DNA from: a virus
DNA length: 64,000 nucleotides
IMG/VR virus record: IMGVR_UViG_3300046690_000348
Location: 2,927-66,926 of that record
Direction: 5' to 3' (one strand)
The notes under the pieces were generated by a model. That model was not told the DNA's origin and did not search any database. It was given only the letters and a program-made list of their open reading frames with translations. Below, piece by piece: positions 34,571 through 58,046 of this stretch (position 1 is its first letter; each line of letters opens with the position of its first letter). The position numbers and the translations under genes were made by a program.

Positions 34571-34578
34571 GAGACGAC

Positions 34579-43857: not shown

Positions 43858-44157
43858 ATGAACAATCTCGCCGCCCGCATCAAGGTGCTCGGCACCGCTG
43901 TCAACACGTGGCTCGTCGCCATCGCTCTGATCGTGCCGATCGCCGTCAGCGAGATCGCACAGGAGTTGCCGTCCGACAAGGCCGAAGCGGTCACGAAGTG
44001 GGGCGGGAAGTTGATCGCGTGGATCGGTGTCGCCGTTGCGATCGTGCGCCGCTCGACGCCGGTCATCAAGTCGCAGCGCGGTCTCCTCGCTCCGGGCGAG
44101 GGCGTGCCGGTGGTCCCGGTCGCGAACGTCGCTGGTGGCGACGCTCACTCCGGTTAA
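43858..44157 (+). CDS. putative holin
   Basis: Two hydrophobic helices, directly after the endolysin. Confidence 0.65.
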   Translation: MNNLAARIKVLGTAVNTWLVAIALIVPIAVSEIAQELPSDKAEAVTKWGGKLIAWIGVAVAIVRRSTPVIKSQRGLLAPGEGVPVVPVANVAGGDAHSG

Positions 44158-47100
44158 TCCGCTGACTGCGTCAACGTCACGGTTGGGGCGAGCACTGTCA
44201 ACGTGACGATGGTCGCCCCGCTGACGAGTGACACGGTCGGCGCCAGCACGTCGAGGATGAGCGTCGGGACGAGCACTTCGAGCGTGCAGGTCGGGACCAG
44301 CGTCTCCAAGTCGACGGTGCCACGGAACAGGACGCCGACCGGGACCCCGGTGAGAACGAGGACGCCGGGCGGGACCGGGATCGAGGTTGCGAGTCCGCTG
44401 CCCGCCACTGATGGCGCACGGCCCGTGATCGTCAACTGACCTGTCGGGACGAGCACCGTCCCGGAGCCGGTGGCCGTGATGATCGGGGCGACACCGACGA
44501 TGGTGAGCGCGGCGGGTGGGATCTGGTTGGCGGAAGCAGCGCCGGTCACGACCGGCGGCACACCGGTGATCGTCAGGTTGCCCGTTGGAGCGAGGATCGT
44601 TGCCGTGCCGGTCCCGGTGATCGTCGGGGCGCGCCCGGCGACGATGAGCGTGCCGCTCGGGATGAGGATGGTGACCGACCCGGCCGTGATGATCGGTGCG
44701 ACGCCGGTGATTGTCAGCGCGGCGGGTGGGACCGTGATCCTCGTGAACGCTGCGACCTGTGGTGCAACGCCGCTCAGCGTCAGAACGCCGGTCGGCGCGA
44801 CGATGCTGCGCGTCCCGGTCCCCGAGACGGTCGGGGCGACACCCAGGAACGTGAGGTCGGCGGGCGGGACGACGATGGTGGACGGTGCGCCGAGGATGCT
44901 CGAACCGACCCGGCGGATGCGCTGAACCGGGCGGACTGGTGGGCGGCGGACTGCAACGTTGCGGGTCGAGCGGCGGCGACCCTGGTCGTAGATGAGCGCA
45001 ATGTCCATCCCGGCCGTGACAGTCGGCGGGGTGTCAGTCGCGAATGTCAGATCGGCAGGCGGGACGACGATGGTTTGCGGGTAGGCGACGAGGTTGACGT
45101 CGAGGCGCGACTTGCGAACCCAGAACCGGGGTGGGATGCGCCGGACGGCGACAGCGAGTGTCGAGCGGCGCCGGTTGGTATCGACGTACAGCGCCGGATC
45201 CATCCCGACCGAGACGACCGGCGGTGTGTCGGTCGCGAACGTGAGGTCGGCGACGGGGGCAAGGATCGTCGCCGTGCCGGTGGCCGTGATGATCGGCTCG
45301 ACGCCGACGAGGGTGAGATCCGCCGGTGGGATCGGGATCGTCTGCGCTTCGCCTGCGGGTGGCGCTTGGTGGAACCGGCGCGCCATGACGTACTGGGCGG
45401 CGGTCGACACGACGCGGCGCCCGGCGACGAGGCGGACCTGCAACTGTTCGCGGCCCGAGAAGTTCGGGACAAGCGGGATGCCAGCCGCTACGGCGGAGGC
45501 GAGCAGCGCGCCCTGGCGATCGCGCCGGTAGCGGTTGAGGTAGTAGCGCCACGGTGCTGAGCGGTCCGGGTCGCGGCGGGCAGCGGTGTTGACGGCCTGG
45601 CGGTAGGCGGCACCGGCGTCGATCGCGTAGATCGGGTCGTCACCGGCGAGGACGACCGGGGCGATTCCCTCGAACGTGATGGGGCCGACCGGGAGCAGGA
45701 TTGTGGCCGTTCCGGTGGCTGTAACGGCCGGTGCGACGCCGGTGACGGTGAGCGCACCAACGGGGGCGAGGATGGTCGCTGTGCCCGTAGCGGTGACCAC
45801 AGGGGCCACACCGGTGAACGTGAGGTCCGCCGGTGGGATCGTGATGGTTTGTGGGAAGGCGATGAGGTTCGGGTCGAGGCGGCGGAGGCGCACCCAGAAG
45901 CGGGCCGGGAGGCGACGGACGGCGACGGCGATGGTGGAGCGGCGACGGTTGACGTCGACGTACAGCGACGGGTCCATGCCCGTCGACACGACGGGTTCGA
46001 CGCCGGTGAGGACGACTTGGCCGGTTGGGACTTGAACGTTGAACCCGCCGGTCGAGGACACGAACGGGGCGACGCCGGTGATCGTCAGCGCTCCGGTCGG
46101 TTCGAGGATGCTCGTCGTGCCGCTGCCACTGAGTGTCGGCGCCACGCCGGTGAACACGAGATCCGCGTTCGGCACCAAGATCGTCTGCGGATAGGCAACG
46201 AGATTGGTGTCGAGACGACGTGGCCGCGGGTGCAGCCGCGCCGGGAGGCGGCGGGCTGCGACGGCGATGGTCGAGCGACGCCGGTTGATGTCGATGTACA
46301 GCCCGGGGTCGATCGACGTCGACACGGTCGGCTCGACACCGGTGAACGTGATGATGCCCGGAGGGACCGGGATGGTCGCCGGGGCGGTGATCGTCGGCGC
46401 GATGCCGGTCAGCGTCAGGTCCCCTGGCGGGATTGTGATGGTCTGCGCTTCGCCGAGGATCTGCGACTGGCGCCGGGGTGCCGGACGTTGCACGATGGCG
46501 CGTCGGGTCGCTGTGTTGACTGTGGTGCGGCGCCGACCCTGGTCGTAGATGAGGGCGATGTCCATCCCGGCCGTGACGCCCGGCTCGACGCCGGTGAACA
46601 CGAGATCGGCGGGTGGAACGAGGATCGTTTGCGGGTAGGCGATCAGAGCGACGGTGTCGCGTCGGGAGCGAGGCCAGATACGAGCGGGAACACGCCGGAC
46701 GGCGGTGGCGAGGGTTGAGCGTCGGCGGTTGACGTCGTTGGCGGTCGACAGGTCGAAGCCGGTCGTGACGGTCGGCTCGACGCCCGTCAGGACCAGATCG
46801 CCCGGCGGGATCGTGATCGTCTGCGCGTAGGCGAGCAGGTTGACGTCGAGGCGACGCGCCCGGGGCAGAGGCCGAGCCGGGAGTCGCCGGGTTGCGACTG
46901 CCAACGTCTGGCGACGTCGGTTCTGGTCGACAACGAGCGTCGGGTCGATGTTGGTCGTGACGACTGGTTCGACGCCGGTGAGGACCAGATCCGCGGGTGG
47001 GATCGTGATGGTCTGCGGGTAAGCGACGAGGTTGACGTCGAGCTTCGACTTGCGGACCCAGAAGCGGGCCGGGATGCGCCGAGTCGCGACTGCGAGGGTC

Positions 47101-50100
47101 GAGCGACGGCGATTCTGGTCGGCGAGGAGCGCCGGGTCGAGGCCGACATCCACGGTCGGCGGCGTGTCCGTGGCGAACGTGATGTCGCCGTTCGGAATGA
47201 GGATCGTCTGAGGGAAGGCGATGAGGTTGACGTCGAGGCGGCGAACTCGATGCAGGTAGGCAGGCGATGGTGGGCCGCGGCGACCGGCGGCTGCGAGCGC
47301 CCAGCGGCGACGGTTGATGTCGGTGATGAGGGGCGGGTCGTAGGCGGTCGTGACGACAGGCGCGACGCCGTCGATCGTGATGACACCGGGCGGGATCGGA
47401 ATGGTCGCTGTCCCGGTGCCTGCGACGGTCGGCGCAACACCGTCGATCGTGAGCACACCGGCAGGGATCGCGATCGTCGCGGTGCCGGTGCCCGCGACAG
47501 TCGGTTCGACGCCGACGAGAACGAGATCCCCTGGCGGGATGTCGATCGACTGCGCTGTGGTGGCGACCAGGTCGAAGTTGAACTGGCGGAACCGTGCCGT
47601 CGCGTTGCGGGCCTGGGCGTTGCGGTCAGGATCGCGGCGCACGGCCGTGGCGATCGACCGGCGGTCCCTCGCGTTGGAGTTCGCGTTCCGCAGCGCCCAA
47701 CCGTCGATCGAGAGCGAGTTGACTGGCGGGATCGCGATGGTGCTCACGAACCAGAAGTTGGACGTTGCGAGCAGCATCGTCCCCGGGTTCTCGCTGGGCG
47801 TCGTGATGTCCCTGGATGCTGTTGCTACCGACGCGGCGTCGACAGTCAGGCGGGACAGTTCCGAGTACCCGACGGACGCGTACGCGTCCGCTGGCACGGC
47901 GGTGTTGGAAACCACGGCCTCGATGACCAGATAGTCGAGGAATGGCGACGGGGCGACCCCGTCGATCAACATGGTCACGTTCGCCGGGTCAGGGATGGTG
48001 CTGTTCCCGCTTTGGCCACCCCCCGCCGTGATGTCATTCTTGAGGTCGCGCACGCCGTGCTGGACGACGCGGTGAACGATGACGGCCATGTCCCTGTTGG
48101 CACTGTTCCCCAACAGAATGCTCGCCGGGTCTGCCCCATCGGAGATCCGGCCGAACACGGCGATCGAGTTACTCGATCCAGCGCCAGCGATGAGGTGCCA
48201 TCCGTCCGGGATCTCGATCCTCGTGCCCGATGTCGGGATCGCTCCGACGTAGGCCAGAAGCAGGTCGCCAGCCTCGACGCCTGCGGGAATGTTGAACGCG
48301 AAGGGCGTCCCGATCGCGCCCGTATCCGGGATCGACGTGGTGGCCGACTCGATGACGTACGGGTAGCGGAATACGCCCTCCCACACGACGTGGCGTTTGA
48401 GCGCGTTGCGGAGTGCGGCGTTGCGGTCCGGCGGGCGGCGCACCGCGACGTCGAGCGCGGAGCGTCGACGGTTCTGGTCGACGTACAGCGGCAGGCCGTT
48501 GTCGAGAACGTCGATGTTGCTGACGAAGCCGTCGTCACCGGCGAGAACGAGATCGCCTGGCGGGATCGGGATCGTCACGCTGGACAGGAAGTCCACGAAC
48601 GTCTGGCGGTAGCGGCGTTGCGCGTACCGCCACGGCGCGGAACGATCCAGGTCGCGGCGTGTGGCGACGTTGAGCGTTTCGCGGCGGCGGCTCTGGTCTA
48701 CCTGCAACGGCAGGGCATCGGTGTTGACGTTGCCGATGTCCGGGACGAGACCCGAGAACGTGAGTACGCCGACAGGCACGTTGATGCCGAACGGTGGGAT
48801 TGCCAGCGTGTACGTGCGCGAAGTCTGCGAACCAGACTTGTGCATGACGCCGGGATCTTCGGTCGTCGCCGTCAGGTTCCGGCCGCCGACCATGACGTTG
48901 CCGTTGGTCCCGGCCGACGTCAGGACCGGTCCGTAGTCCGTCGACCAGTAGACCGCTGACGGGCTGTCGATGCCGAACCCGGAGGATTCCAGCCACAGCC
49001 AGTCGCCAGGTCTCGGCACGGTCAACGACGGCGGGTCTGGGCTGGTCGAGGCTCCGCTGGCAGCCGCCGTGACCGCGATGTCCGAGACGGACGGTGCATC
49101 AGCGAGTGATGTGACGCCGTGGTTGACGATCCGCGCGATCGCGTACGCGAGGTTGGAGAACGTCGGGGTCGTCTGGATCGTGGTCGCATCCGACCCGGTT
49201 GCGAGCCTGGCCCAAATGTTGAGCCGTGGACCGTTGCCCTGCTCCGCGATCAGCGACCAACCCGCGCTCAGCGTCAACGCTGACGCGCCGCCCGCCTCGG
49301 CCCACAGGATGAGCAGATCGCCGCTGACGATCCCAGCGGGCAGTGTCAACGATTGAGGGCTGGATGGTGAGGTGAAGTTGCTTGAGAACGTGGACGCGAT
49401 CCACGGGAAGCGACGGATCTCCTCGGGGACGGTGTGCCGCTTCTGAGCGTGAAGGTACGGGGCGAAAGTCGGTGGTCCTCGAACGAACGTGCTTCGCACT
49501 GCGACGTCGATGGTGATCCGATGGCGTGAGTGGTCGACTAGGAACTCAAGCTCTAGTTCGGGCGGGTGGATGATCTCGTCGGGTGGCTGCTGGTAGCGGC
49601 GGCGGAGCGCCTGGTTCCAAAGCGCAGACCGATCTGGTGGGCGACGCACGGCCGCATTGAGCGTCTGGCGGCGGCGCATCTGGTCAAACACCAGTACCTC
49701 AACGACGGGGGTCGTGCGCGCCACAACGGGAGCCGTCGACATGTTCCCGAACTCAACGTTGTCAACGTTTCCAGATGCCTGCGTCGAACTCTTGAAAACG
49801 AAGATGCCCGGTGCTCCGCTCACCGGCGAGTGAACGTCTTTGGTGACCCGTAGCGTCCCGTCGAAGTAGACCCTGAGAACCTGGTTGAACACTTCGAGAC
49901 GAACAACCCCGGACGTCGCTAGGCCCGTCACGGTGAGGAGGGTGGTGGACACGAACCCGACGATCTGTGTGACGCGCAGCGTGCCAGTACCGGCCGATTC
50001 GGCAAGGAAGGCCGTGTAGGCGTTCCCTCTGTCGCTGTCGGAGAGGACCACGACCCCGGCTTGCGAAGTGAGGCCGGGTACGGACACGGTCGCCTGCACA

Positions 50101-50375
50101 TATTGGGAGTCGGTGAACACTCGGTCCGTGTACAGCGCCCCGTGGAAGGTGCTGCCGGTGGCCGTGCCGATCACCGAGTTCGAGTTGATCTCCGGGACGC
50201 TGTAGCCGACGATCGTGGTGTAGGCCGAACCGAGTCCACCATCCGCACGGTTGAAGTTGTCGCTGACAACGAGATCGCTGACGAGCAGGTCGCCGGTCGG
50301 GACGCTGATCGAGATCGGCGGCGGCGGGGATGCCAGCGCCGAGGTCCAGCGCGCGGAGATCCAGGGCAGGCTCAT
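44154..50375 (-). CDS. 2073-aa modular virion protein with alternating beta-strand and Arg-rich repeats
   Basis: More than 20 TIxIPxGxLTxTGVxPxV units, about 15 DxNRRRSTxAVAxRR units, one lectin-like domain, two PAG..xGDLL domains. Confidence 0.8.
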   Translation of the reverse strand: MSLPWISARWTSALASPPPPISISVPTGDLLVSDLVVSDNFNRADGGLGSAYTTIVGYSVPEINSNSVIGTATGSTFHGALYTDRVFTDSQYVQATVSVPGLTSQAGVVVLSDSDRGNAYTAFLAESAGTGTLRVTQIVGFVSTTLLTVTGLATSGVVRLEVFNQVLRVYFDGTLRVTKDVHSPVSGAPGIFVFKSSTQASGNVDNVEFGNMSTAPVVARTTPVVEVLVFDQMRRRQTLNAAVRRPPDRSALWNQALRRRYQQPPDEIIHPPELELEFLVDHSRHRITIDVAVRSTFVRGPPTFAPYLHAQKRHTVPEEIRRFPWIASTFSSNFTSPSSPQSLTLPAGIVSGDLLILWAEAGGASALTLSAGWSLIAEQGNGPRLNIWARLATGSDATTIQTTPTFSNLAYAIARIVNHGVTSLADAPSVSDIAVTAAASGASTSPDPPSLTVPRPGDWLWLESSGFGIDSPSAVYWSTDYGPVLTSAGTNGNVMVGGRNLTATTEDPGVMHKSGSQTSRTYTLAIPPFGINVPVGVLTFSGLVPDIGNVNTDALPLQVDQSRRRETLNVATRRDLDRSAPWRYAQRRYRQTFVDFLSSVTIPIPPGDLVLAGDDGFVSNIDVLDNGLPLYVDQNRRRSALDVAVRRPPDRNAALRNALKRHVVWEGVFRYPYVIESATTSIPDTGAIGTPFAFNIPAGVEAGDLLLAYVGAIPTSGTRIEIPDGWHLIAGAGSSNSIAVFGRISDGADPASILLGNSANRDMAVIVHRVVQHGVRDLKNDITAGGGQSGNSTIPDPANVTMLIDGVAPSPFLDYLVIEAVVSNTAVPADAYASVGYSELSRLTVDAASVATASRDITTPSENPGTMLLATSNFWFVSTIAIPPVNSLSIDGWALRNANSNARDRRSIATAVRRDPDRNAQARNATARFRQFNFDLVATTAQSIDIPPGDLVLVGVEPTVAGTGTATIAIPAGVLTIDGVAPTVAGTGTATIPIPPGVITIDGVAPVVTTAYDPPLITDINRRRWALAAAGRRGPPSPAYLHRVRRLDVNLIAFPQTILIPNGDITFATDTPPTVDVGLDPALLADQNRRRSTLAVATRRIPARFWVRKSKLDVNLVAYPQTITIPPADLVLTGVEPVVTTNIDPTLVVDQNRRRQTLAVATRRLPARPLPRARRLDVNLLAYAQTITIPPGDLVLTGVEPTVTTGFDLSTANDVNRRRSTLATAVRRVPARIWPRSRRDTVALIAYPQTILVPPADLVFTGVEPGVTAGMDIALIYDQGRRRTTVNTATRRAIVQRPAPRRQSQILGEAQTITIPPGDLTLTGIAPTITAPATIPVPPGIITFTGVEPTVSTSIDPGLYIDINRRRSTIAVAARRLPARLHPRPRRLDTNLVAYPQTILVPNADLVFTGVAPTLSGSGTTSILEPTGALTITGVAPFVSSTGGFNVQVPTGQVVLTGVEPVVSTGMDPSLYVDVNRRRSTIAVAVRRLPARFWVRLRRLDPNLIAFPQTITIPPADLTFTGVAPVVTATGTATILAPVGALTVTGVAPAVTATGTATILLPVGPITFEGIAPVVLAGDDPIYAIDAGAAYRQAVNTAARRDPDRSAPWRYYLNRYRRDRQGALLASAVAAGIPLVPNFSGREQLQVRLVAGRRVVSTAAQYVMARRFHQAPPAGEAQTIPIPPADLTLVGVEPIITATGTATILAPVADLTFATDTPPVVSVGMDPALYVDTNRRRSTLAVAVRRIPPRFWVRKSRLDVNLVAYPQTIVVPPADLTFATDTPPTVTAGMDIALIYDQGRRRSTRNVAVRRPPVRPVQRIRRVGSSILGAPSTIVVPPADLTFLGVAPTVSGTGTRSIVAPTGVLTLSGVAPQVAAFTRITVPPAALTITGVAPIITAGSVTILIPSGTLIVAGRAPTITGTGTATILAPTGNLTITGVPPVVTGAASANQIPPAALTIVGVAPIITATGSGTVLVPTGQLTITGRAPSVAGSGLATSIPVPPGVLVLTGVPVGVLFRGTVDLETLVPTCTLEVLVPTLILDVLAPTVSLVSGATIVTLTVLAPTVTLTQSAD

Positions 50376-50385
50376 GGTTGTCCCG

Positions 50386-50715: not shown

Positions 50716-50725
50716 CGTCCGTCCT

Positions 50726-51868
50726 TTACGTTTCTTCTAGACCGAAGTTGAGCACACGCACCAGACCGCCACGGGGAGGGAACCCGCCCGACGTCTCGTA
50801 GATCGTCACGAACGGCGTCGTCGCGTGCGCGACCGCGAGGAATCGACCGTCCGGTGAGAATGCGCAGCCGTTGCCGTTACCGGTGGGCAGAGTGCTCGGA
50901 TCGGCGAGTTTCGTGAACGTCGTCCCGGACCGGTCGTAGATCGTGACGAACGGGGTGCTCGAATGACCGACAGCGAGGAACCGTCCGTCTGGGGACCAGG
51001 CACAGGAGCGACCGTCATCCGCTGGCAGCGTCGCCGGGTCCGCGAGTTTCGTGAACGTCGTCCCGGACCGTTGATAGATCGTGACGCGCGGAGAAACAAA
51101 ATGAGCGGTTGCGAGCAGGCTGCCGTCCGGCGAGAACGCAATCCCGGTCACGATGTTCGCTGGCAACGATGCCGGGTCGGAGAGTTTCGTGAACGTGGTG
51201 CCGCTCCGTTCGTAGATGATGACGAACGGCGTGGTGCCGGTGCCAAGAGCGAGGAACCGTCCGTCCGGCGACCAGCAGCACCCAGTACACAGGTCAGGTG
51301 GCAACGATGCCGGGTTGGAGAGTTTCGTGAACGTCGTCCCCGAGCGTTCGTAGATCGTGACGAACGGCGTGCTGCCGGTGCCGACAGCGAAGAACCGTTC
51401 ATCTGGCGACCAGGCGCAACTCAAGGTGCTTCCTGCTGATGGTTGCGTGATGCCCGCGATGTTCGTGAACGTCGCCCCGGTGCGTTCGTAGATCGTGATG
51501 GCGATGCCTTGGGCGAACGCCAGGAATCGGCCTGACGGCGACCATGCGCACGATTGTGCGTCGCTGCCGAGCAGCGTCACCGGGTCGGGCAGGGCCGTGA
51601 ACGTCGACGCGGTCCGGTCGTACGTGACGAAGTAGTTGATCGCGCCAGCGCCGCTGACGGTGAGGAACCGGCCGTCAGGCGACCACGAAGCAGCGAGACC
51701 ATTCCCCGGCGGCAAGGTCCCCGGGTTGGTCAGCTTAGTTGGGGTGATCCACGGATAGACCAACTCGGCCCGTGTCGATTGCGGCCGGTCCTGGCCGACG
51801 TCGCCGCCGTCTTGGGTAGAGAGGTTGCGGACGACGAGCGTCATCGAAGGTTTCAAGGCGTCGGCCAT
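50726..51868 (-). CDS. 7-bladed WD40-like beta-propeller, paralog 3
   Basis: Seven (W/F)SPDGRFLAV...PFVTIYERSGTTFTKL.DP..LP blades. Confidence 0.9.
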   Translation of the reverse strand: MADALKPSMTLVVRNLSTQDGGDVGQDRPQSTRAELVYPWITPTKLTNPGTLPPGNGLAASWSPDGRFLTVSGAGAINYFVTYDRTASTFTALPDPVTLLGSDAQSCAWSPSGRFLAFAQGIAITIYERTGATFTNIAGITQPSAGSTLSCAWSPDERFFAVGTGSTPFVTIYERSGTTFTKLSNPASLPPDLCTGCCWSPDGRFLALGTGTTPFVIIYERSGTTFTKLSDPASLPANIVTGIAFSPDGSLLATAHFVSPRVTIYQRSGTTFTKLADPATLPADDGRSCAWSPDGRFLAVGHSSTPFVTIYDRSGTTFTKLADPSTLPTGNGNGCAFSPDGRFLAVAHATTPFVTIYETSGGFPPRGGLVRVLNFGLEET

Positions 51869-53124
51869 CAGAGTTCCCCCGGATCTGGCATCCACAGATA
51901 GAAGTCGTCCTCGTACACCGTCTCACCGGACGTCTCGTAGAACAGGATGTCGGTGGAGCCGGATGACATGGGCAGCGTCATAAACCTTCCGTCCGGTGAC
52001 CAGGCGCTCCCCTTGGTCGATCCGTTGCCGGTCGGCAGGACGGGGGCGACCATCGCCAGGAACTCGGAGCCGAACCTGCGGTACAGAGTCACTGTCGCTC
52101 CGACGTGCATGAGAAGCGAGCCGTCCGGCGACCACGAGCAGCCACCCGCCGCCCCGGGCAGTGTCGCCGGGTTGGGAAGTTTCGTGAACGTGTTACCCGA
52201 TCGTTCGTAGATCGTGATGAATGGGGTCGTGGAGTGGCCCATTGCGAGGAAGCGGCCATCCGGGGAGAACGCGATGCCACCCGAGCCGTTGCCCGCTGGG
52301 AGGGATCCCGGGTCGGTGAGTTTCGTGAAGGTCGTGTCGGTGCGTTCGTAGATGGTGATGAACGGCGTGGTCGCGTGGGAGACGGCGAGGAAACGTCCGT
52401 CCGGCGACCAGCAACACCCTGCGGCGCTTCCTGTTGGTTGCGTCGCCGGGTTGGTGACTTTCGTGAATGTTGTCCCGGTGCGGTCGTAGATCGTGATGCG
52501 GATTGTCACGTTCGTCGTGTGGGCGACCGCGAGGAACCGTCCATCGGGCGACCATGCGAGTCCGTTGACGCCCTGCCCAGGCATCGACGCCGGGTCGGCG
52601 AGCTTCGTGAACGTCGTCCCTGAGCGTTCGTAGATGATGAGGAACACGGAGGCTCCGCCGCCCTCGGCGAGGAACCTGCCATCCGGCGAGAACGCGATCG
52701 TGCTTCCCGCTGACAGCGCGGAGGCCGGATCGGCGAGTTTCGTGAATGTCGTCCCGGAACGCTCGTAGATCTTCAACGGCGGGGTGCCGGTGTGAGCGAC
52801 GGCCAGCATCCGGCCATCGGGCGACCATGATGTCTCGAACGTCGAACTGCCCGGCAGCACCGCAGGCGGTGAGAGCCGCACCGGCTTGTGCCAGCGGAAC
52901 AGGGGGACGAGATATTTGCCCCACTGGTCCTGTCGCAACACCGCGGTGATGGTGCGGGCGACATAGCTGCGGTACCCGGCCAACGGGTATTTGACCGGGA
53001 CATAGGTGATGGTTTGAGCGGTGTCGGTTTCGACGGCCTGCTCGACATCAACGAGCAGCAGACGCGTACGTGCGCCCTGAACGATACGAACATTGGTCGG
53101 TTGGCCGCGGCCTAGCTGGGCCAT
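51868..53124 (-). CDS. 7-bladed WD40-like beta-propeller, paralog 2
   Basis: Seven blades; N-terminal MAQLGRGQP and QAVETDTAQ motifs. Confidence 0.9.
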   Translation of the reverse strand: MAQLGRGQPTNVRIVQGARTRLLLVDVEQAVETDTAQTITYVPVKYPLAGYRSYVARTITAVLRQDQWGKYLVPLFRWHKPVRLSPPAVLPGSSTFETSWSPDGRMLAVAHTGTPPLKIYERSGTTFTKLADPASALSAGSTIAFSPDGRFLAEGGGASVFLIIYERSGTTFTKLADPASMPGQGVNGLAWSPDGRFLAVAHTTNVTIRITIYDRTGTTFTKVTNPATQPTGSAAGCCWSPDGRFLAVSHATTPFITIYERTDTTFTKLTDPGSLPAGNGSGGIAFSPDGRFLAMGHSTTPFITIYERSGNTFTKLPNPATLPGAAGGCSWSPDGSLLMHVGATVTLYRRFGSEFLAMVAPVLPTGNGSTKGSAWSPDGRFMTLPMSSGSTDILFYETSGETVYEDDFYLWMPDPGEL

Positions 53125-53134
53125 CAGCTACCGC

Positions 53135-53602
53135 CTAGATGCGAGTCACCGAAAGAGTGCCGCGGGCGTTGACCGTCGCAGTCGTGTTGATCCGCAAGAC
53201 GAAGCCTTCACCGAGCGCGCAGTCTGGTTCGGTGCCGAGCGGGAAGTTGTAGATGAGAAGCCCGCCGTTCGGCGTGAGGTACTTCTCAAGCAATGGTGTC
53301 ACCGTTGTCGGCTCCGACGTCCACAGCGTGCCCGATGTGAACCCGGCGGTCAGGACGCGGCCGAGTCGTTGACGTGGCGTCGTTGACGTCGAGTTCGTGC
53401 CCGGCGAGTTCGTCGCCCACGTGCAGTAGCACAGTTCGACCGATGCGGGGACGGCGGATGCGGAGATCCCGTCGAAGGCGATCTCGAATCCGACGACCTG
53501 CAAACCGGAGTTGGCGTGGGCTTTGACGCCGAGCATCGACTTCGCCCCGGTCGTGAACGACCTTGCGGCTTCTGTCGAGCAGTCGTAGATCGGGGCTGGC
53601 AT
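53135..53602 (-). CDS. jelly-roll-like virion protein (paralog family B)
   Basis: Beta-rich, about 155 aa, similar layout to 56579-57052. Confidence 0.6.
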   Translation of the reverse strand: MPAPIYDCSTEAARSFTTGAKSMLGVKAHANSGLQVVGFEIAFDGISASAVPASVELCYCTWATNSPGTNSTSTTPRQRLGRVLTAGFTSGTLWTSEPTTVTPLLEKYLTPNGGLLIYNFPLGTEPDCALGEGFVLRINTTATVNARGTLSVTRI

Positions 53603-53619
53603 GGGTTCCTATCTTTCCA

Positions 53620-54384
53620 TCACCAGCGGGTCGATCGGTGGACTGCGAACGTCTTGACGACCGGGTCAGGTGTGGTGGTGAACGTTTCGGTGAAGATCAG
53701 GCAGCCGGTGATCCAGTCCGATGAGGTGCCGGTCGCGCTGAACGACTGGGTGGCGGTGGCGTTGACGACTTTCGATTGGAAGTAGGCGGCCATGCCGGTC
53801 GCACCGGCACCGTTGAACGTGCCGTACACCGCCGACCATGAGCCGTTGGTGGTGTCGGCGTCGCCGGTGACCGCAGCACCGTTCTCGTGACCGACCCAGC
53901 ACAGTACGCCTTCATCCTGGGTCACGGATGGTGTGACGAGCGCCGTCGAAGCTGCGGCACCGACCGTGTTGCCTCCGGTCGCCCCCGAGTTCGTGCGATA
54001 CGTGAGCACCCCGGGGGTGGACACCTTCATAAACGCGACAGCGCGGGCGACGAGCGTGCCGGACCAGGCCACGTTGACGGACGTGCCCGAAGCGATGAAC
54101 GAGGTGACCGGGAACGCGACGCAGCGGACGTCGAGACCGTTGCTGGCGGTGGACGGGTCGTTCGCCCCGGTTTGGGCTGACACGGAAGCACCGACCGACC
54201 CGGACGCCGGGGTGAAGGTGATCGTGCCCGACATCGGATCAGCGCCACCGCCACCGGAGTTGTCATAAGCGATCAACGCGACGACGATGTCGCCGACGTT
54301 CAGATCGACGGCGGTCGTCACGGCCTGCGGCGACGCACCCGACGCGGCGTTCGCTGTACCGGCCCCGGTGAACGTGATCGTCAT
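53620..54384 (-). CDS. Ser/Thr/Ala-rich virion protein
   Basis: VGDIVVA.IA.DN domain like the internal domains of the 2073-aa protein; ends AVHRSTRW. Confidence 0.65.
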   Translation of the reverse strand: MTITFTGAGTANAASGASPQAVTTAVDLNVGDIVVALIAYDNSGGGGADPMSGTITFTPASGSVGASVSAQTGANDPSTASNGLDVRCVAFPVTSFIASGTSVNVAWSGTLVARAVAFMKVSTPGVLTYRTNSGATGGNTVGAAASTALVTPSVTQDEGVLCWVGHENGAAVTGDADTTNGSWSAVYGTFNGAGATGMAAYFQSKVVNATATQSFSATGTSSDWITGCLIFTETFTTTPDPVVKTFAVHRSTRW

Positions 54385-55508
54385 CAGTCACCACCGAGCC
54401 ACGGCCGGAACGTCAACGCATATGGCATCTCGGTCAAGCGGCCCGTCTCGTTCGTCTCGTAGATCGTGACGAACGGCGTCGTGGTGTGCGGGACCGCGAG
54501 GAACCGGCCGTCAGGTGAGAACGCGCTCACTTCGCTGAGTTGAGGCAGTGTGGACGCCGGGGCCGTCAGTTTGATGAACCTTGTTCCGGCCCGTTGGTAG
54601 ATCGCGATGTACGGCGAGTTGCTGTGGCCGACCGCGAGGAACTGGCCGTCCGGCGACCAGGCGCAGCCCTGGCCGTCGCTGGCCGGAAGCGAGTTCGGGT
54701 TCGCCGTCTTGGTGAACGTCGAACCGGACCGTTCATAGATCGTGACGCGCGGCGAGGTCGAGTGGGCGATAGCGAGGAACCGTCCATCGGGCGACCAGCC
54801 AGCACCTTGCCCAAGGCCGGTGGGCAGCGACGCCGGGTCGGCGAGTTTCGTGAGGGTCGTGTTGGTGCGTTCGTAGATGTGAACGTATGGAGTCAGCGTG
54901 GTGACGAGAGCGAGGAAGCGGCCGTCCGGCGACCACGCGCAGCCGTTGCCGTTGGTGGCTCCGATCGGCAGGTCCGCCGGATCGGCGAGTTTCGTGAACG
55001 TGGTCCCCGACCGTTCGTAGATATGGATGAACGGGGTCGAGGTGCTGGCGCACGCGAGGAAACGTGTGTCCGGTGACCACGCGACACCGAACGTCGTGCT
55101 GCCAGGTAGCGACACCGGATCGGTGAGTTTCGTGAACGTCGTGCCCGACCGTTCGTAGATGGTGATGAACGGCGTGGTCGTATGGCCGACAACAAGGAAA
55201 CGCCCGTCCGATGAGAACGCACAAGAGTACGACGTCCCGGCGGGCAGCGTGCCCGGGTCGGTGAGTTTCGTGAACGTCGTCCCGGCACGCTCGTAGATCG
55301 TGATGTTCGGCGAAGTGAAGTGAGCGACGGCGAGGAACCGGCCGTCCGGCGACCATGCGCACGTGTGACCGGTTCCGGTCGGCGGCGTTCCCGGGTCCGT
55401 GAGCTTGTTGGGAGCGGACCAGCGTGAGGTGACGGCCTGTTGCTGGCCGATCGAGGATGGGATCGAGGCGACGGTGGCGACACCGCCGAGGCGTGGGGCG
55501 TCAGCCAT
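54384..55508 (-). CDS. 7-bladed WD40-like beta-propeller, paralog 1
   Basis: Seven blades; start at ATG 55508 (TGATG overlap). Confidence 0.9.
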   Translation of the reverse strand: MADAPRLGGVATVASIPSSIGQQQAVTSRWSAPNKLTDPGTPPTGTGHTCAWSPDGRFLAVAHFTSPNITIYERAGTTFTKLTDPGTLPAGTSYSCAFSSDGRFLVVGHTTTPFITIYERSGTTFTKLTDPVSLPGSTTFGVAWSPDTRFLACASTSTPFIHIYERSGTTFTKLADPADLPIGATNGNGCAWSPDGRFLALVTTLTPYVHIYERTNTTLTKLADPASLPTGLGQGAGWSPDGRFLAIAHSTSPRVTIYERSGSTFTKTANPNSLPASDGQGCAWSPDGQFLAVGHSNSPYIAIYQRAGTRFIKLTAPASTLPQLSEVSAFSPDGRFLAVPHTTTPFVTIYETNETGRLTEMPYALTFRPWLGGD

Positions 55509-55981
55509 CACGCGGCCCGGTAGAACCCGGCGCTGGCGATCCGGGCGAGAATGTCGGCCCCGTCCGGGGTGACGGCGAAGTCGTGCAACGTCAACGGCAC
55601 CATCAGAGCGTCGGTCACCCCGGCCGATGACGGGTCGTAGCAGATCACCAGTTTCGACCATCCGTCCCCGGTGCCGATCCCGGTCCATGTCTGATCGGGA
55701 ATGTCGAGATCGAAGCGGTCGTTCGCGTCGTCCGGGGTGATCGCCGCGAGGTCGGCTGCGGCGAGCACTTTGCGGGCGTACCCCGAGTTCGTCACCTCGT
55801 TCGTCGCCCCGGCGATCACCGCCGCGAACGTGTCCAGGTCGAGCAGCGTCGCATCCGACTGCAACCCGGACGTGGCGAGCGCGGCGATGACGAGCCGCGA
55901 CCCGGACGGATCGCCGAGGTCGACACGGTTATATAGCTCAGTGACGCGGCCCTTGGCGATGTTAAAGACCGACGCTGCCAC
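55508..55981 (-). CDS. small virion adaptor-like protein (paralog family A)
   Basis: VFNIAKGR...NE.T..GYARK.L...DD.NDR..LD..DQTW...P.G.DI; TACTGT 7 nt before GTG. Confidence 0.75.
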   Translation of the reverse strand: MAASVFNIAKGRVTELYNRVDLGDPSGSRLVIAALATSGLQSDATLLDLDTFAAVIAGATNEVTNSGYARKVLAAADLAAITPDDANDRFDLDIPDQTWTGIGTGDGWSKLVICYDPSSAGVTDALMVPLTLHDFAVTPDGADILARIASAGFYRAA

Positions 55982-56024
55982 GCTGCCTACAGTACGAGTC
56001 GCGTCGCGCGACGGCGGGGGATGC

Positions 56025-56261
56025 TCACACCCGCTCCGAGCACGCCGGGCAGAGTTCCTGACCTTGTGGGGCGAAGTCTGCGGCGTACCCGTTCGTGATC
56101 GCCCAACGGCCACACAGGGTCGTGCCGATCGTCTTGCCTGCGTCACCGACCTGCGGGATGGCATGACGGCCCGGTTGCATGATGTGCCACGGGCGCAGCG
56201 GGTTCTCCTGGTCGACGCCGAGCACGGCCAGCTTGCGGCCGACCATGATCAGCTTGCCCAT
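56025..56261 (-). CDS. small Zn-binding hypothetical protein
   Basis: WH...TLCG...CPAC. Confidence 0.55.
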   Translation of the reverse strand: MGKLIMVGRKLAVLGVDQENPLRPWHIMQPGRHAIPQVGDAGKTIGTTLCGRWAITNGYAADFAPQGQELCPACSERV

Positions 56262-56266
56262 CGCTG

Positions 56267-56569
56267 TCAGCCCGAGATGGCTACTTCGACCGACCCGAAC
56301 GCGAAGTGGGAGTAGCCGCGCTCGACTTCGATGGTGTGCTCGACACCGTCTGCGTCAACGGTCGACACCCAGCAATACAGGTTCTCGCCGCGCTTGTCGG
56401 TGCGCTGCACGATCCGCACTCGGGTCCCGTCCTCGGCGTCCCATTCGGTGAGCGTGCCATCTTCGCCCGGGGAGGCCGACAGCGTCTCCGCTGCCACGCC
56501 CTTGCCCGAGGGGTAGAAGTAGCCGCGCGCTGAAACGGTGTCCGGGTAGTGCGTGATCTTCACCTTCAT
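56267..56569 (-). CDS. hypothetical protein
   Basis: ORF in minus-strand operon. Confidence 0.55.
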   Translation of the reverse strand: MKVKITHYPDTVSARGYFYPSGKGVAAETLSASPGEDGTLTEWDAEDGTRVRIVQRTDKRGENLYCWVSTVDADGVEHTIEVERGYSHFAFGSVEVAISG

Positions 56570-56578
56570 GGACTGAGG

Positions 56579-57052
56579 TTAGTACGAGAACTCAAGCCAC
56601 GTGACACCGTGCAGCCAGTTGCCGGTCGGGGCAACCGAGTGCTTCAACCCGATGAACTCGGACGGGCCGAGGCCGATGCGCTCCTCGGGGACCGGGAGGT
56701 ACAGGCAGCCGTTGCCGACGATGTTCAACCCCTCGTTCCAGAGGTAGTTCGTCAGGTCGGTGCCCTCGACCGTGGCGGTGATGCCGGTCGCGGCTGAACC
56801 ACCGACGCACTTCGATGCCTGCATACCGTCCGTCAGGAAGTCGGGGGTACGCGACGTCACGGTCGCGGCTGCGGACTTCTTGATGAGACCGAGCGCGGTC
56901 GCTGCGGACGTCGTGGACGACGACTGTCCGCCCCACGCGCGGATGATGTCGATCGCGACGTTCGCCGGTGTGGCGACCTGGATGACAGTGATCGCCGTGG
57001 TGGTCGAGACGTTCGATCGAACGACGGCGTAGGACCCGGATGGTGCTGGCAT
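56579..57052 (-). CDS. jelly-roll-like virion protein (paralog family B)
   Basis: T.IQV...T.EGT...G.LY.P.PEERI; AGGAGA SD. Confidence 0.65.
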   Translation of the reverse strand: MPAPSGSYAVVRSNVSTTTAITVIQVATPANVAIDIIRAWGGQSSSTTSAATALGLIKKSAAATVTSRTPDFLTDGMQASKCVGGSAATGITATVEGTDLTNYLWNEGLNIVGNGCLYLPVPEERIGLGPSEFIGLKHSVAPTGNWLHGVTWLEFSY

Positions 57053-57064
57053 GGCTCTATTCTC

Positions 57065-57529
57065 CTACGAGGCTCGGTACAGATCGGTGATGGTCAACGT
57101 GATGTCTGACCCGTTGGTTGGGATTCCGGGCGCGTCCAACAGGAACACGCTGATGACCGGGGAGTCGGTGTCGTTCGTCACGAACTCGAACACGAACCCG
57201 CCGATGATCGTCTCCCCGGCGGCGACACCGGAGATGACCACATCGGAGGCGTCCATGTTGACCCGGTCGTTGGCGTCGTCCTCGGTCGCGTTCGAGCGCG
57301 TGAGGTTCTGACGCGAGTACCCGGCGACCGTCAACTCGGCGACGCCGGTCGCTGCGAGGAAGTCGGTGACGAAGTTGATGTCCGCGACCTCGGCCGCGGT
57401 GTCGATCCCTGTCGGACGTGACGTGCCGTTGATGAGGCCGAGCCGGAACGCCGTGCCGCCCGAGTCATCCCAGTCGCCCTGGATGAGCTTGAGCTTGCCC
57501 TTGTTGGTCAACCAGTTGACGGATGCCAT
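57065..57529 (-). CDS. small virion adaptor-like protein (paralog family A)
   Basis: EL...GYSRQ.L...DD.NDR...DA.DV...P.NG.DI; GGAGGAG SD. Confidence 0.75.
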   Translation of the reverse strand: MASVNWLTNKGKLKLIQGDWDDSGGTAFRLGLINGTSRPTGIDTAAEVADINFVTDFLAATGVAELTVAGYSRQNLTRSNATEDDANDRVNMDASDVVISGVAAGETIIGGFVFEFVTNDTDSPVISVFLLDAPGIPTNGSDITLTITDLYRAS

Positions 57530-57598
57530 TGAACACTCCTCCGGGGAGAACTACGTCGACAGGAATCTAGTTGACCGCACGTGATCATTCGGGGACCA

Positions 57599-57931
57599 TC
57601 AGACGTACACGGCGGCTCTGACAACGGTGAACCACGTCGACTTCGACGCTCCTCCACCGACGAACGTGACGACCCACTTGCCGGTCTCGGTCAGCGGGTC
57701 AGGGAAGTTGAAGTCCCAGTAGCCGACCTCGGTCGAGGAGATCTCAACGGTCGGCGTGGTGTAGTTGGTGATGACACCCGATGGTGACTTGGTGGTGACC
57801 GTGATCGTCGTCGGGTCGAACAGGTCGCCTTCGGTTTCGCCCGGCTCGGGGATGTCGTGATACGTCCCGCGCACGGTCGGCATCACCCCCTGCTCGTACT
57901 CGCCTGGCCCGCATTCGCGTGTGGTTCTCAT
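57599..57931 (-). CDS. Ig-like virion protein
   Basis: DPTTITV..K.PSG...G.W.F.F.....G.W...F.V pattern. Confidence 0.6.
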   Translation of the reverse strand: MRTTRECGPGEYEQGVMPTVRGTYHDIPEPGETEGDLFDPTTITVTTKSPSGVITNYTTPTVEISSTEVGYWDFNFPDPLTETGKWVVTFVGGGASKSTWFTVVRAAVYV

Positions 57932-58046
57932 CACTCGTACCATCCGTCGCGGACACGCGGGTCACGGGTGCGGAGCAGCGGGGCGGTCGCGAACACGAGC
58001 ATCGTGAACGCGACCATCACCGCGAAGCCCCGCCAACCGGCGGGCA

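Follow-up and report, generated by a model that had tools for sequence, protein, structure and literature searches.

A variable block of putative adhesin genes beside the capsid genes of a soil-type actinophage, with predicted peptide docking onto a small adaptor-family protein

Receptor-binding proteins set host range in tailed phages. To our knowledge, the mounting of extra receptor-binding proteins is understood for only a few model systems. In Enterobacteria phages G7C, CBA120 and PhiK64-1, one particle bears many receptor-binding proteins, attached by way of adaptor domains and of docking parts conserved at the N-terminus; in these branched systems, T4 gp10-like docking domains lie within the tailspikes, which are beta-helix depolymerases. 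On capsids, the decoration proteins Hoc/Soc of T4 and gpD of lambda carry their own exposed domain. The tail wing of mycobacteriophage Bxb1 consists of a gp30 base, a gp31 arm and a gp33 brush and is a dispensable peripheral appendage (PMC12646305, PDB 9d93). The host-recognition device of Staphylococcus phage phi11 includes a beta-propeller receptor-binding protein (PMC4901313), and Agrobacterium phage 7-7-1 has a tail fibre, a short fibre and a garland assembly (PDB 9RKV, PMC12796354).

We analysed a stretch of 64,000 nucleotides (the window) that covers bases 2927-66926 of a 66,926-bp single contig, the genome of a 66.9-kb soil-type actinobacterial phage (actinophage). In tblastn searches its capsid protein matches actinophage 'major capsid hexamer protein' genes at ~24-34% identity (457 records). 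Coding frames with GC3 of 0.78-0.91 occupy 44154-57943 on the minus strand, a 14-kb block whose genes are tightly packed in the late structural operon, with stops overlapping starts. Capsid genes lie on one side of it and displaced neck and tail-tube genes on the other. The latter, a head-tail adaptor (phrog_783, 1.1e-63), a tail tube protein and Neck1, run from 27847 down to 25118 on the capsid-gene strand and are separated from the capsid genes by an inverted segment that extends from the tape measure through the lysin. The block and its upstream border are as follows; identities refer to G001, one of two close relatives.

59092..61008, minus strand: major capsid (hexamer-type) protein, 638 aa, the upstream border (phrog_777, 2.1e-64)
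58047..58979, minus strand: 310-aa capsid-protein partner, presumably the pentamer protein, a name taken from actinophage annotation practice (phrog_779, 1.2e-30; 86% identity)
57599..57943, minus strand: 114-aa core protein (89% identity)
57065..57529, minus strand: famA1, 154-aa adaptor-family protein, core (phrog_26662, 9.7e-8; 92% identity)
56579..57052, minus strand: famB1, 157 aa, core, predicted jelly roll (160 homologues; AF2 pLDDT 86.8, all beta)
56267..56569, minus strand: 100-aa protein (GC3 0.85; no family match)
56025..56261, minus strand: 78-aa Cys-containing core protein (88% identity)
55508..55981, minus strand: famA2, 157 aa, GTG start, candidate 'socket' adaptor (phrog_26662, 6.2e-36)
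54384..55508, minus strand: propeller 1, 374 aa from MADAPRLGG, seven WD40-like repeats (Pfam)
53620..54384, minus strand: 254-aa beta-rich protein with a 'GDLL-type' domain, ending FAVHRSTRW (no family match)
53135..53602, minus strand: 155-aa protein (no family match)
51868..53124, minus strand: propeller 2, 418 aa, seven repeats (Pfam), 90-residue N-terminal extension
50726..51868, minus strand: propeller 3, 380 aa from MADALKPS, seven repeats (Pfam), start overlapping the propeller 2 stop
50386..50715, minus strand: 109-aa beta-rich protein (GC3 0.83; no family match)
44154..50375, minus strand: giant, 2073-aa fibre- or adhesin-type protein, highly repetitive, N-terminal domain opening DNFNRADGGLG

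We read this block, with a probability of roughly 0.55, as an accessory module for host adhesion, enlarged and horizontally shuffled, in a siphovirus infecting Actinomycetota. The propellers and GDLL-type domains would be glycan- or surface-binding 'heads' on the virion and the giant a long fibre, the domain types being what suggests glycan binding. The small famA proteins may be sockets sitting on the particle, each holding a head by a short N-terminal plug, one unit of a repeat here called ETD-AQ, through strand pairing with the famA C-terminal sheet. The giant would then be another payload or fibre, not a common scaffold.

A preliminary description of this DNA had counted five beta-propellers, three WD40-like and two with LVIVD repeats, and all five are present. 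Propellers 1-3 are 48-57% identical to one another, carry seven 'WSPDGRF'-type repeats apiece when read from sequence, and pass the Pfam cut-offs for PF23389 (75.1, 59.4 and 71.5 bits for propellers 1, 2 and 3; cut-off 27), PF10282 (58, 40.2 and 29.3 bits; cut-off 21.7) and PF07676 (41.3, 51.3 and 41.7 bits; cut-off 20.9). By Pfam clan they belong to the WD40-like/PD40/lactonase-type class of seven-bladed beta-propellers. Two of them match phrog_24741, 'virion structural protein' (7.7e-9 and 5.4e-6), and in a podovirus a related WD40 protein is encoded close to the genes for the tail chaperone and lysis. In propeller 1, the N-terminal 39 residues, QQQAVTSRW among them, lie outside the propeller, and its ATG overlaps the stop of famA2, to which it is translationally coupled. 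The LVIVD proteins are encoded outside the block, and both exceed the PF08309 cut-off of 20.2 bits.

38148..40286, plus strand: LVIVD-repeat propeller protein, 712 aa, N-terminal PSATRPMF (PF08309, 8.4e-26, 89.5 bits)
41702..42904, plus strand: LVIVD-repeat protein, 400-aa ORF with a likely start 20 codons in, N-terminal PSATRPIF (PF08309, 1.1e-11, 44.2 bits)

The phage resembles phi11 in being a siphovirus with a beta-propeller as its probable host-binding platform. It differs from phi11 in that its WD40-like propellers are three, small and single-domain, that two LVIVD proteins are present besides, and that each of these proteins has only a short N-terminal peptide instead of a baseplate-built stem. 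The description was also right about the terminal peptides MAQLGRGQP, QQQAVTSRW, FAVHRSTRW and PSATRP[MI]F, and about Ser/Thr-rich composition (13-26% across 21 counted proteins of the phage; 6% in the 78-aa protein). Its expectation of more receptor-binding proteins than in a standard siphovirus is supported in kind: there are far more candidates, and small adaptor-like proteins accompany them.

The repetitive giant is built of two GDLL-type domains, 14 Arg-rich modules of ~40 aa and ~24 copies of a 24-residue repeat, 'VPxGxLTLTGxAPTV'. Compared with its G001 orthologue it has a dN/dS of 0.37 (287 codons). Over its whole length it has no match in Pfam, PHROG, PDB or phage tblastn searches. 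Among 1.84 billion representative proteins 753 match it, nearly all at the 24-residue repeat. In the best 57 of these, 12 proteins carry Laminin_G_3, single proteins carry apiosidase, beta-helix, polysaccharide lyase, SGL, lactonase, fn3 or Cthe_2159 domains, and three have hits to 'virion structural protein' PHROGs. Pfam assigns the giant no family, and so no PF13385 (Laminin_G_3/concanavalin-A-like lectin) in its N-terminal domain; the one feature shared is the opening motif DNFNR, which also occurs in 4 of the best 57 repeat proteins and, by eye, at domain starts in the IMG/VR loci L062 and L083. The motif pattern of the 254-aa protein was recognised by eye in residues 323-530 and 685-885 of the giant and in a 238-aa protein of G001. 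BLASTP of the 254-aa protein lists no match at E<=0.05, and the 238-aa protein matches the giant at 2.8e-6 and 2.9e-4.

Comparison with close relatives divides the block into a conserved core and a variable cassette. Two relatives, G001 and G002, have a capsid protein 89% identical to that of the window phage and retain the 114-aa protein, famA1, famB1, the 78-aa protein and the giant. These core proteins are 85-92% identical, with the exception of the giant (48%). The 100-aa protein, famA2, the three propellers, the 254-aa, 155-aa and 109-aa proteins are absent from both relatives, which hold at the same position ~3.3 kb of different genes: those for a protein with three GDLL domains, a 148-aa protein, a 217-aa ORF and the 238-aa GDLL protein. 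No G001 counterpart of the 100-aa protein lies between famB1 and the 78-aa gene.

The other small proteins are less readily placed. The 114-aa protein, which had been called Ig-like, has no Pfam, PHROG or PDB-sequence match, and Pfam finds no family in the 254-aa protein or in famB. The famB1 model has no PDB match at E<=1e-3 and resembles generic jelly rolls only, the best being picornavirus VP2-type and satellite-virus coats and C1q heads (Foldseek E 2.8e-3 to 5e-2, TM 0.3-0.44). The 155-aa protein had been taken as a second member of family B. This pairing did not survive comparison with famB1 (BLASTP E=0.34; 28-sequence profile E=0.035, probability 1.5%). In IMG/VR loci including L118, L119, L121, L122 and L127, the 78-aa protein is again encoded two to three genes beyond famB1.

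The famA family offers the candidate socket. famA1 and famA2 both belong to phrog_26662 (function unknown), match each other by BLASTP (5e-5) and are found by an HMM of 60 IMG/VR famA homologues (2.8e-13 and 7.9e-78, respectively), and Pfam finds no family in either. The family is large and uncharacterised, with 3436 homologues of famA2 and almost no cultured members (6 phage records). Of the three family A proteins proposed previously, the 154-aa and 157-aa members are therefore kin, and the link to a third, the 135-aa product of a tail-operon gene, is weak (famA1 with phrog_644, E=0.0076; hhalign E=0.012, probability 3.6%). The AF2 model of famA2 (pLDDT 77) finds no PDB match with Foldseek at E<=1e-3. 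Against BFVD it matches a 144-aa protein of Mycobacterium phage Onyinye (E=3.4e-4), a 502-aa 'Structural protein' of phage 7-7-1 (E=4e-4) and, more weakly, many 'tail-collar fiber' or 'tail fiber' proteins (E 0.008-0.03). In cultured phages the famA homologue is accompanied by a large adhesin-like partner (gp12/gp13 in Hiyaa; gp34 with gp35 and gp36 in Pam4), and the same pairing is seen in G003, a prophage-type relative.

A gene-neighbourhood survey in IMG/VR had been proposed as a check. In IMG/VR, proteins with tandem 20-residue units follow famA genes. We call this unit the ETD-AQ repeat, a working name and not a curated family, and built its HMM from 223 distinct units in 29 proteins. Of 351 relatives in IMG/VR, 80 loci were kept, and ORF calling recovered famA in 65. 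An ETD-repeat protein is present in 28 of the 65, in 26 cases downstream of famA on the same strand and within 4.6 kb. Counted by ORF, the repeat occurs in 35 of 1088 in famA loci versus 0 of 1156 in 71 famB1 control loci. The IMG/VR proteins carry 3-19 tandem units. Hiyaa gp13 and Pam4 gp35 and gp36 lack the canonical repeat. In the window phage, propeller 2 gives the sole match with E<0.1 among 131 ORFs, with a single unit in its N-terminal extension; propellers 1 and 3, the 254-aa protein and the giant have no significant match (E at least 11 or no hit).

52990..53043, minus strand: candidate 'plug', propeller 2 residues 28-45 (VEQAVETDTAQTITYVPV), one ETD-AQ unit (HMM E=9.4e-7)

When famA2 was folded together with residues 1-95 of propeller 2, three runs gave ipSAE values of 0.73, 0.80 and 0.74, compared to a best of three of 0.00 for the controls. 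The predicted interface comprises propeller 2 residues 20-36. Contact agreement between runs was at least 72%, with a partner pLDDT of 48-58 (below 50 in one run). Of 80 solved complexes 58 attain the mark of the fold tool, as do 2 of 110 mismatched pairs; these counts are only approximate here because we supplied our own alignment. Since the famA2 model has no PDB match at E<=1e-3, there was no solved look-alike complex for the model to recall. These predictions support docking of a short N-terminal peptide, outside the propeller, onto famA2 for the one pair modelled. The earlier proposal of peptide docking is supported in kind by this one predicted pair (0.74 versus 0.00), whose peptide is a unit of the repeat that follows famA in 28 of 65 loci.

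Two plus-strand genes outside the block resemble known virion proteins, the first of them in the tail operon.

34163..34570, plus strand: 135-aa protein homologous to the 'tail wing arm' gp31 of Bxb1 (9d93 gp31, E=4.5e-9; phrog_644, 1e-26)
34534..34983, plus strand: 149-aa ORF, virion structural protein, likely start further in at MAVPGYNV (phrog_3758, 2.8e-26)

As in the Bxb1 tail wing, where a small arm protein joins the base to the distal part, a gp31 homologue is encoded here. It lies in the tail operon, outside the 14-kb block, and the distal heads would be propellers. Against Bxb1 gp31 the famA profile gives E=0.52. No gp30 homologue was seen; the sole candidate tried, the VanY lysin, did not match 9d93. 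The 149-aa ORF weakly matches a 141-aa chain of 9rkv, the 7-7-1 tail-fibre entry (E=0.0015). In phage 7-7-1 the fibres likewise come with a small accessory protein in many copies; that phage is a myovirus, however, and its matches to the 149-aa protein and the famA2 model are weak. The 164-aa protein named 'Dit' has no family match, and what supports the name is its position after the tape measure. The preliminary remark that the architecture was not recognised as described was too strong, because the base-arm-brush tail wing is known in Bxb1 and a homologue of its arm is encoded here.

The strongest alternative places the module on the head as a fibre and decoration system, with famA seated on the lattice of the capsid and both the heads and the giant serving as head fibres. 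We consider this unlikely, though it has the best claim among the rivals. The block follows the capsid genes, in Hiyaa the genes for gp12 and gp13 are flanked by those for the major head protein and the head-to-tail adaptor, and the famA-adhesin pair of G003 abuts its capsid gene. Tandem plugs of 3-19 units could, moreover, bridge several lattice-bound sockets. When the nearest gene of at least 250 aa upstream of famA was matched to PHROGs at 58 loci, the most-matched families were major head proteins (phrog_617, 9; phrog_10, 9; phrog_2263, 6; phrog_15928, 3; phrog_283, 2; phrog_4523, 2); 'minor tail' (phrog_290) and tail fibre (phrog_8469) families were matched 5 and 3 times. These counts cannot be summed because one member can match several families. 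However, where a gene lies says little about where its product sits on the particle, and other signs point towards the tail: the Pam4 homologue comes after the tape measure and a baseplate protein, that of locus L071 comes after a 'tail protein', the 135-aa protein, with its weak likeness to famA, corresponds to a tail wing arm in Bxb1, and the structural matches of the famA2 model include the 7-7-1 protein and, more weakly, tail fibre proteins. If famA did sit on the capsid, it would resemble T4 Hoc/Soc and lambda gpD as a lattice-bound protein presenting an outward domain, with the difference that socket and head would be separate, peptide-joined proteins here; no homology to those proteins was found.

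The host-adhesion reading can also be extended, more speculatively, to famA (phrog_26662) and the ETD-AQ repeat as a general, undescribed plug-and-socket that mounts exchangeable glycan-binding heads on the virions of many uncultured phages, with 1-19 plugs per payload setting the valency and an expansion to several heads (three propellers and GDLL-type proteins) in this phage. In its boldest form, the 14 Arg-rich inserts would be docking sites of a branched appendage, possibly on the capsid. We hold this extension, on the whole, to be doubtful. The host-adhesion module as read here would be similar to the G7C, CBA120 and PhiK64-1 systems in placing many receptor-binding proteins on a particle via adaptors. 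It would differ in having a free-standing 157-aa protein as the candidate socket and a 20-residue repeat unit as the plug. Among 27 proteins scanned, none matched a T4 gp10-like docking domain in Pfam or PHROG, a scan that distant folds would escape.

The preliminary description had instead made the giant a scaffold, onto whose repeat modules adaptors and propellers dock by terminal peptides to form a branched, multivalent appendage. Several small proteins are indeed encoded beside it, and its 14 Arg-rich modules (iE<0.01) are regularly spaced between shaft units. The module is also absent from the other best-scanned repeat proteins (0 of 57); being confined to this lineage, it has the look of a function added to a generic shaft. 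Nevertheless, its HMM finds no other protein of this phage and nothing in famA loci, and an apparent likeness to the propeller N-termini was rejected by HMM test. Both G001 and G002 keep a giant with at least four Arg modules in the absence of famA2 and all three propellers. Furthermore, the giant bears head-like, adhesin-type domains of its own, and the sole well-scoring predicted docking is onto famA2 and not onto the giant. Its domains and relatives make a fibre or adhesin the likelier identity of the giant, and the scaffold proposal is improbable. That these proteins act off the virion, either as 'morons' in or on the infected cell (surface modification, phage exclusion) or, for the Arg-rich giant, as an internal DNA-binding or ejection protein, is very improbable: the cassette is variable and horizontally acquired, most parts lack structural annotation and the Arg-rich modules are strongly basic, but the giant as a whole is near neutral (K+R 8%, D+E 7%), the genes sit in the late operon with their stops and starts overlapping, the domains that accompany the 24-residue repeat are of fibre or depolymerase kinds, and both the propellers and the repeat proteins include members with 'virion structural protein' matches.

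Even if the docking proves false, the block shows clearly how adhesin genes turn over by whole cassettes in an actinophage lineage that has received little study. A prophage relative lies in Desertimonas flava (class Acidimicrobiia). The host-adhesion reading also supplies a concrete pair, a 157-residue candidate socket and a peptide of ~17 residues, in a family with thousands of metagenomic members. If the docking is true, it would account for the exchange of heads among phages cassette by cassette, assign both name and role to a large PHROG of 'unknown function', and provide a natural tag-and-dock pair for protein display on phage particles.

The window covers bases 2927-66926 of a phage genome of 66,926 bp in a single contig and has a G+C content of 65%. 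Because high G+C yields many spurious ORFs, genes were picked by third-position G+C content (GC3). No tRNA genes were found in the window, and a promoter and terminator scan of 43500-61500 gave no signal above shuffled sequence. The region of interest is a block of 13 minus-strand genes, on which a plus-strand operon running from tape measure to lysin (27904-43816) converges:

61314-63407, minus strand: 697-aa protease-type protein (phrog_859, 1e-63; phrog_18402 'head maturation protease', 2e-27)
between the 697-aa and capsid genes, minus strand: 75-aa protein
after the 75-aa gene, minus strand: major capsid protein, 638 aa (phrog_777, 2.1e-64)
after the capsid gene, minus strand: capsid partner, 310 aa (phrog_779, 1.2e-30)
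57943 down to 44154, minus strand: the 13 tightly packed genes, directly after the capsid genes
start of the plus-strand operon, plus strand: tape measure protein, 1908 aa (several PHROG tape-measure families, best 1.8e-22)
after the tape measure, plus strand: 164-, 135- and 149-aa proteins, then a 782-aa protein
later part of the operon, plus strand: 712-aa LVIVD protein, then 145-aa and ~350-aa proteins and an LVIVD protein of ~380 aa
end of the operon, plus strand: lysin with VanY and PG_binding_1
from 27847 downward, minus strand: head-tail adaptor, 263 aa (phrog_783, 1.1e-63)
27847 downward, minus strand: tail tube protein, 231 aa (phrog_792, 5.8e-8)
27847 downward, minus strand: Neck1-type protein, 148 aa (phrog_5, 3e-5)

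The 697-aa protein aligns with only the C-terminal half of the phrog_859 profile, a 'portal' PHROG, and also matches the capsid maturation protease of Arthrobacter phage Tank. The true portal gene probably runs past the window end (63325-64000) into the first 2.9 kb of the genome. The tape measure and adaptor genes are divergent, with a gap of just 56 bp. Between the 149-aa and 782-aa genes (34983-35803) no ORF passes the GC3 filter; a 354-aa ORF at 34734-35798 fails it.

A tblastn search matched the capsid protein to 457 phage records, every one at less than 60% identity, mostly Mycobacterium, Gordonia, Microbacterium, Streptomyces and Arthrobacter phages, where the annotation is 'major capsid hexamer protein'. 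The sole match among 185,579 species (one genome each) is a prophage of Desertimonas flava (class Acidimicrobiia; L176 10001-11926) with a capsid protein 51% identical to that of the window, a hint as to the possible host range of the lineage. In the distant relatives L004, L005 and L006 and in Arthrobacter phage Tank, an adaptor homologue lies on the capsid strand 0.8-3.8 kb beyond the end of the capsid match. The 14-kb block therefore fills the slot between the head and neck genes, and the same gene order indicates that the tape-measure-to-lysin block has been inverted into this slot. The close relative G001 shares this layout (window 23664-44157): its inverted block likewise separates the capsid operon from the genes for the adaptor, tail tube and Neck1.

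Comparison with relatives separates a conserved core from a variable cassette. A related capsid protein is encoded by five IMG/VR contigs, and the 2073-aa repeat protein at the end of the block (44154-50375; hereafter the giant) is matched in two of them, G001 and G002, where the capsid protein is 89% identical. Both keep the 75-aa protein, the capsid pair, the 114-aa protein (89%), the small proteins famA1 (154 aa; 92%) and famB1 (157 aa; 92%), and the 78-aa protein (88%). Their giant is shorter and 48% identical across the repeat region. In the stretch from the 78-aa gene to the giant, neither encodes the 100-aa protein, famA2 (157 aa), the three propellers, or the 254-, 155- or 109-aa proteins. 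In their place are genes for two proteins with domains of a kind that we call GDLL-type, one of ~640 aa with three such domains and one of 238 aa, along with a 148-aa protein and a 217-aa ORF. One GDLL-type domain is ~80% identical, by eye, between G001 (L016 7952-8668) and the distant contig L173 (3708-5555), of which the famB1 homologue is just 30% identical, and the comparison points to recent exchange of this domain between the two lineages. Gene turnover of this kind in G001, G002 and L173 is the pattern expected of host-recognition cassettes.

The preliminary description had seen here a display system in which many heads and adaptors dock by terminal peptides onto a giant scaffold. As an observation it was largely right: the window does encode the three WD40-like propellers, the pair of LVIVD proteins and the giant repeat protein, and each of the four quoted peptides was located. 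Two start codons were corrected, placing the start of famA2 at a GTG at 55981 (its stop overlaps the propeller 1 ATG at 55508) and that of propeller 3 at 51868, overlapping the propeller 2 stop. The propellers share 48-57% pairwise identity. Of the proposed three-member family A, the 154-aa and 157-aa proteins (famA1 and famA2, both members of phrog_26662) belong together, and the 135-aa tail-operon protein is linked weakly. The proposed pairing of famB1 with the 155-aa protein was not borne out (BLASTP E=0.34; 28-sequence profile E=0.035, probability 1.5%). famB1 has 160 homologues and is modelled as a beta sandwich (pLDDT 86.8) for which the PDB matches are generic jelly rolls only; its PDB sequence match to a dehydrogenase was rejected as chance-level (E=0.17). 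PDB sequence searches with the 114-aa and 254-aa proteins and famA1 returned nothing useful. ESM Atlas gave for famA1 a sub-threshold lead to a domain of the GP4 fibre gp80 (0.89), rejected as it lacked Pfam confirmation, and otherwise unnamed viral clusters only.

The giant is a real gene, with a GC3 of 0.84, a 1466-aa open frame conserved in two relatives and a dN/dS of 0.37 over 287 aligned codons. Its N-terminal domain begins DNFNRADGGLG, and two GDLL-type domains (~323-530 and 685-885) resemble the G001 protein of 238 aa (2.8e-6 and 2.9e-4). It also carries two repeats: an Arg-rich module of ~40 aa with the pattern D-x-NRRRSTLAVAVRR-x-P-x-R... (14 copies at iE<0.01), and a 24-residue unit, V-P-x-G-x-L-T-L-T-G-x-A-P-T-V (about 24 copies by regex). 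At whole length it has no match in Pfam, PHROGs or PDB sequences, nor by tblastn in 50,697 phage records, a search in which the low-complexity filter may mask repeats. A 521-residue part found three proteins in the length class searched of a 5.8-billion-protein set. An exhaustive phmmer search of residues 925-2073 against 1.84 billion cluster representatives yielded 753 proteins at E<=1e-3 (206 at E<=1e-10, nine at E<=1e-30), nearly all aligned with the C-terminal run of 24-residue units. At least three such units occur in 51 of the 57 best matches and Laminin_G_3 in 12; apiosidase, right-handed beta-helix, polysaccharide lyase, SGL, lactonase propeller, fn3 and Cthe_2159 occur in one each. 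Three of the 57 match PHROGs named 'virion structural protein', and none contains the Arg-rich module.

These matches and their domains make the giant one of a broad class of large proteins in which a generic shaft repeat bears carbohydrate-binding or carbohydrate-degrading domains. The three PHROG matches and the nearest ESM Atlas clusters (for the C-terminal 1174 aa, unnamed viral clusters only, at 0.88 with low recognition) suggest that this is a class of phage proteins, and the Arg-rich inserts are what sets the giant of this lineage apart. Its role as scaffold, the centrepiece of the preliminary model, is unproven and unlikely on present evidence. It should also be noted that on one contig, L173 (6035-6664), a 209-aa protein with proline-rich repeats ('VVPLTPAAQILEAQ') and Arg-rich ends follows the famB1 homologue, and from its sequence looks like the giant in miniature.

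In the 5.8-billion-protein set, 3436 proteins are homologous to the small protein famA2 at E<=1e-3, the best 119 (famA2 itself aside) being 65-73% identical, yet just six cultured-phage records contain a homologue. In Streptomyces phage Hiyaa, a 1110-aa 'minor tail protein' comes after the homologue gp12, and the pair lies between the head protein and the head-to-tail adaptor. In Pseudanabaena phage Pam4, genes for the tape measure and for a baseplate protein precede the homologue gp34, and those for a polysaccharide lyase and a 1290-aa protein come after it; the Pam4 paper reports no virion data for gp34. In G003, a prophage-type relative, a famA-like gene precedes a 1382-aa protein in which propeller-like repeats and two further stretches, one fn3-like and one leucine-rich-repeat-like, were read by eye.

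The neighbourhood survey in IMG/VR that the preliminary description had proposed revealed two recurrent famA partners. From 351 famA2 relatives, 80 loci were retained; a famA gene was called in 65, and the other 15 were left out of the maps. The first, cluster c1, lies directly upstream of famA in these maps (L023-L102) and comprises 56 proteins of 120-250 aa that share conserved Cys and His residues (for example L083 7415-8008 and L071 7505-7969; motif 'GPGHYCC..CG' by eye). The c1 members tested had no PHROG or Pfam match, and no copy is detectable in the window phage. The second is cluster c2, 39 proteins of 100-1388 aa, of which 29 carry 3-19 tandem units of a repeat with a period of 20-21 residues (...G-Q-x-x-E-T-D-x-A-Q-x-I-T...P-K-R-R-L-V..., hereafter ETD-AQ). 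Other c2 proteins have Laminin_G_3 (1/8 tested) or GDLL-type domains, and two of the latter match giant residues 326-603 (2e-20 and 3.6e-19). An ETD-repeat protein is present in 28 of the 65 famA loci, 38 of which reach at least 3 kb past famA; in 26 of the 28 it lies downstream on the same strand within 4.6 kb. The ETD-AQ HMM matched 35 of 1088 ORFs in famA loci versus 0 of 1156 in 71 famB1 control loci (of 73, excluding two that duplicate G001 and G002). PDB sequence searching with the ETD-repeat protein of L061 gave nothing useful, and canonical ETD repeats are absent from Hiyaa gp13, Pam4 gp35 and gp36, and the G003 adhesin.

Among 131 ORFs of the window phage, the ETD-AQ HMM has one match at E<0.1, residues 28-45 of propeller 2 (E=9.4e-7), in the same N-terminal extension as the peptide MAQLGRGQP of the preliminary description. 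The idea that the Arg-rich module derives from the same motif as the ETD repeat or the propeller N-termini was rejected, as the module's HMM matches the giant alone among phage ORFs and no ORF in the famA loci.

We modelled one pair, famA2 (35-row alignment) with propeller 2 residues 1-95. Three runs gave ipSAE values of 0.73, 0.80 and 0.74, compared to 0.00 for the best of three controls. Among solved complexes 58 of 80 attained the tool's mark, as did 2 of 110 mismatched pairs; these counts are approximate here, as our own alignment was supplied. As nothing in the PDB matches the famA2 model, a memorised complex is an unlikely explanation for the pass. Contacts agree to at least 72%, the confident ones joining peptide residues 23-31 to famA2 143-155 (C-terminal strands); the pLDDT of the partner is 48-58, so the fold of this propeller 2 fragment itself is uncertain. 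The model supports, and does not show, binding of famA2 by the propeller 2 N-terminus.

Appendages of small adaptors have a precedent. According to PMC12646305, the Bxb1 wing base gp30 attaches to tail spike gp22 and is in turn bound by gp31 (arm) and gp33 (brush), and gene 30 tolerates deletion; an appendage of this kind is therefore already known in actinophages. The gp31 homologue here is the 135-aa tail-operon protein, which matches the 'Tail wing arm, gp31' chain of PDB 9d93 (E=4.5e-9). The VanY lysin was rejected as a gp30-like wing base (no match with 9d93). Profile comparison and fold search did not establish famA1 and famA2 as relatives of gp31; the famA2 model gave 0 PDB matches at E<=1e-3.

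Whether famA proteins sit on the head or the tail is answered differently by gene position and by fold. On gene position, the head side is favoured: among the nearest upstream genes of at least 250 aa at 58 famA loci, the PHROG families that draw the most matches are those of major head proteins (9 genes match phrog_617, 9 phrog_10 and 6 phrog_2263, where one gene may match several families). Families of terminases, adaptors, 'minor tail' proteins (5) and tail fibres (3) come next. On fold resemblance, the tail side is favoured: seven BFVD entries match the famA2 model at E<=1e-3, among them a 144-aa protein of Mycobacterium phage Onyinye and a phage 7-7-1 structural protein of 502 aa, and many weaker matches (E 0.008-0.03) are to proteins named tail-collar fibre or tail fibre. 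The 149-aa tail-operon protein weakly matches a small chain of the 7-7-1 tail-fibre entry, in which, according to PMC12796354, a small 'garland' protein rings the fibres.

Terminal peptides also recur in the tail block. The 712-aa and ~380-aa LVIVD proteins (38148-42904) have a common PSATRP[MI]F N-terminus, and the ~350-aa protein, read from M42 of the 40584-41762 ORF, begins MPLSHSALFRDP. In the G001 tail block (L016 13825-17706), a 675-aa protein begins SSHTPLFDVP and a 612-aa protein SSHKPLFDPP. All of these N-termini were read by eye; they may represent another conserved docking peptide, one used at the baseplate.

Functional statements throughout rest on sequence, gene neighbourhood and fold models. 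The interpretation of many heads, adaptors and peptide docking is right in spirit. The most interesting result, going beyond the wording of the preliminary description, is the socket family and its repeat: famA is a very common, uncharacterised family, and a 20-residue repeat is predicted to be gripped by it.
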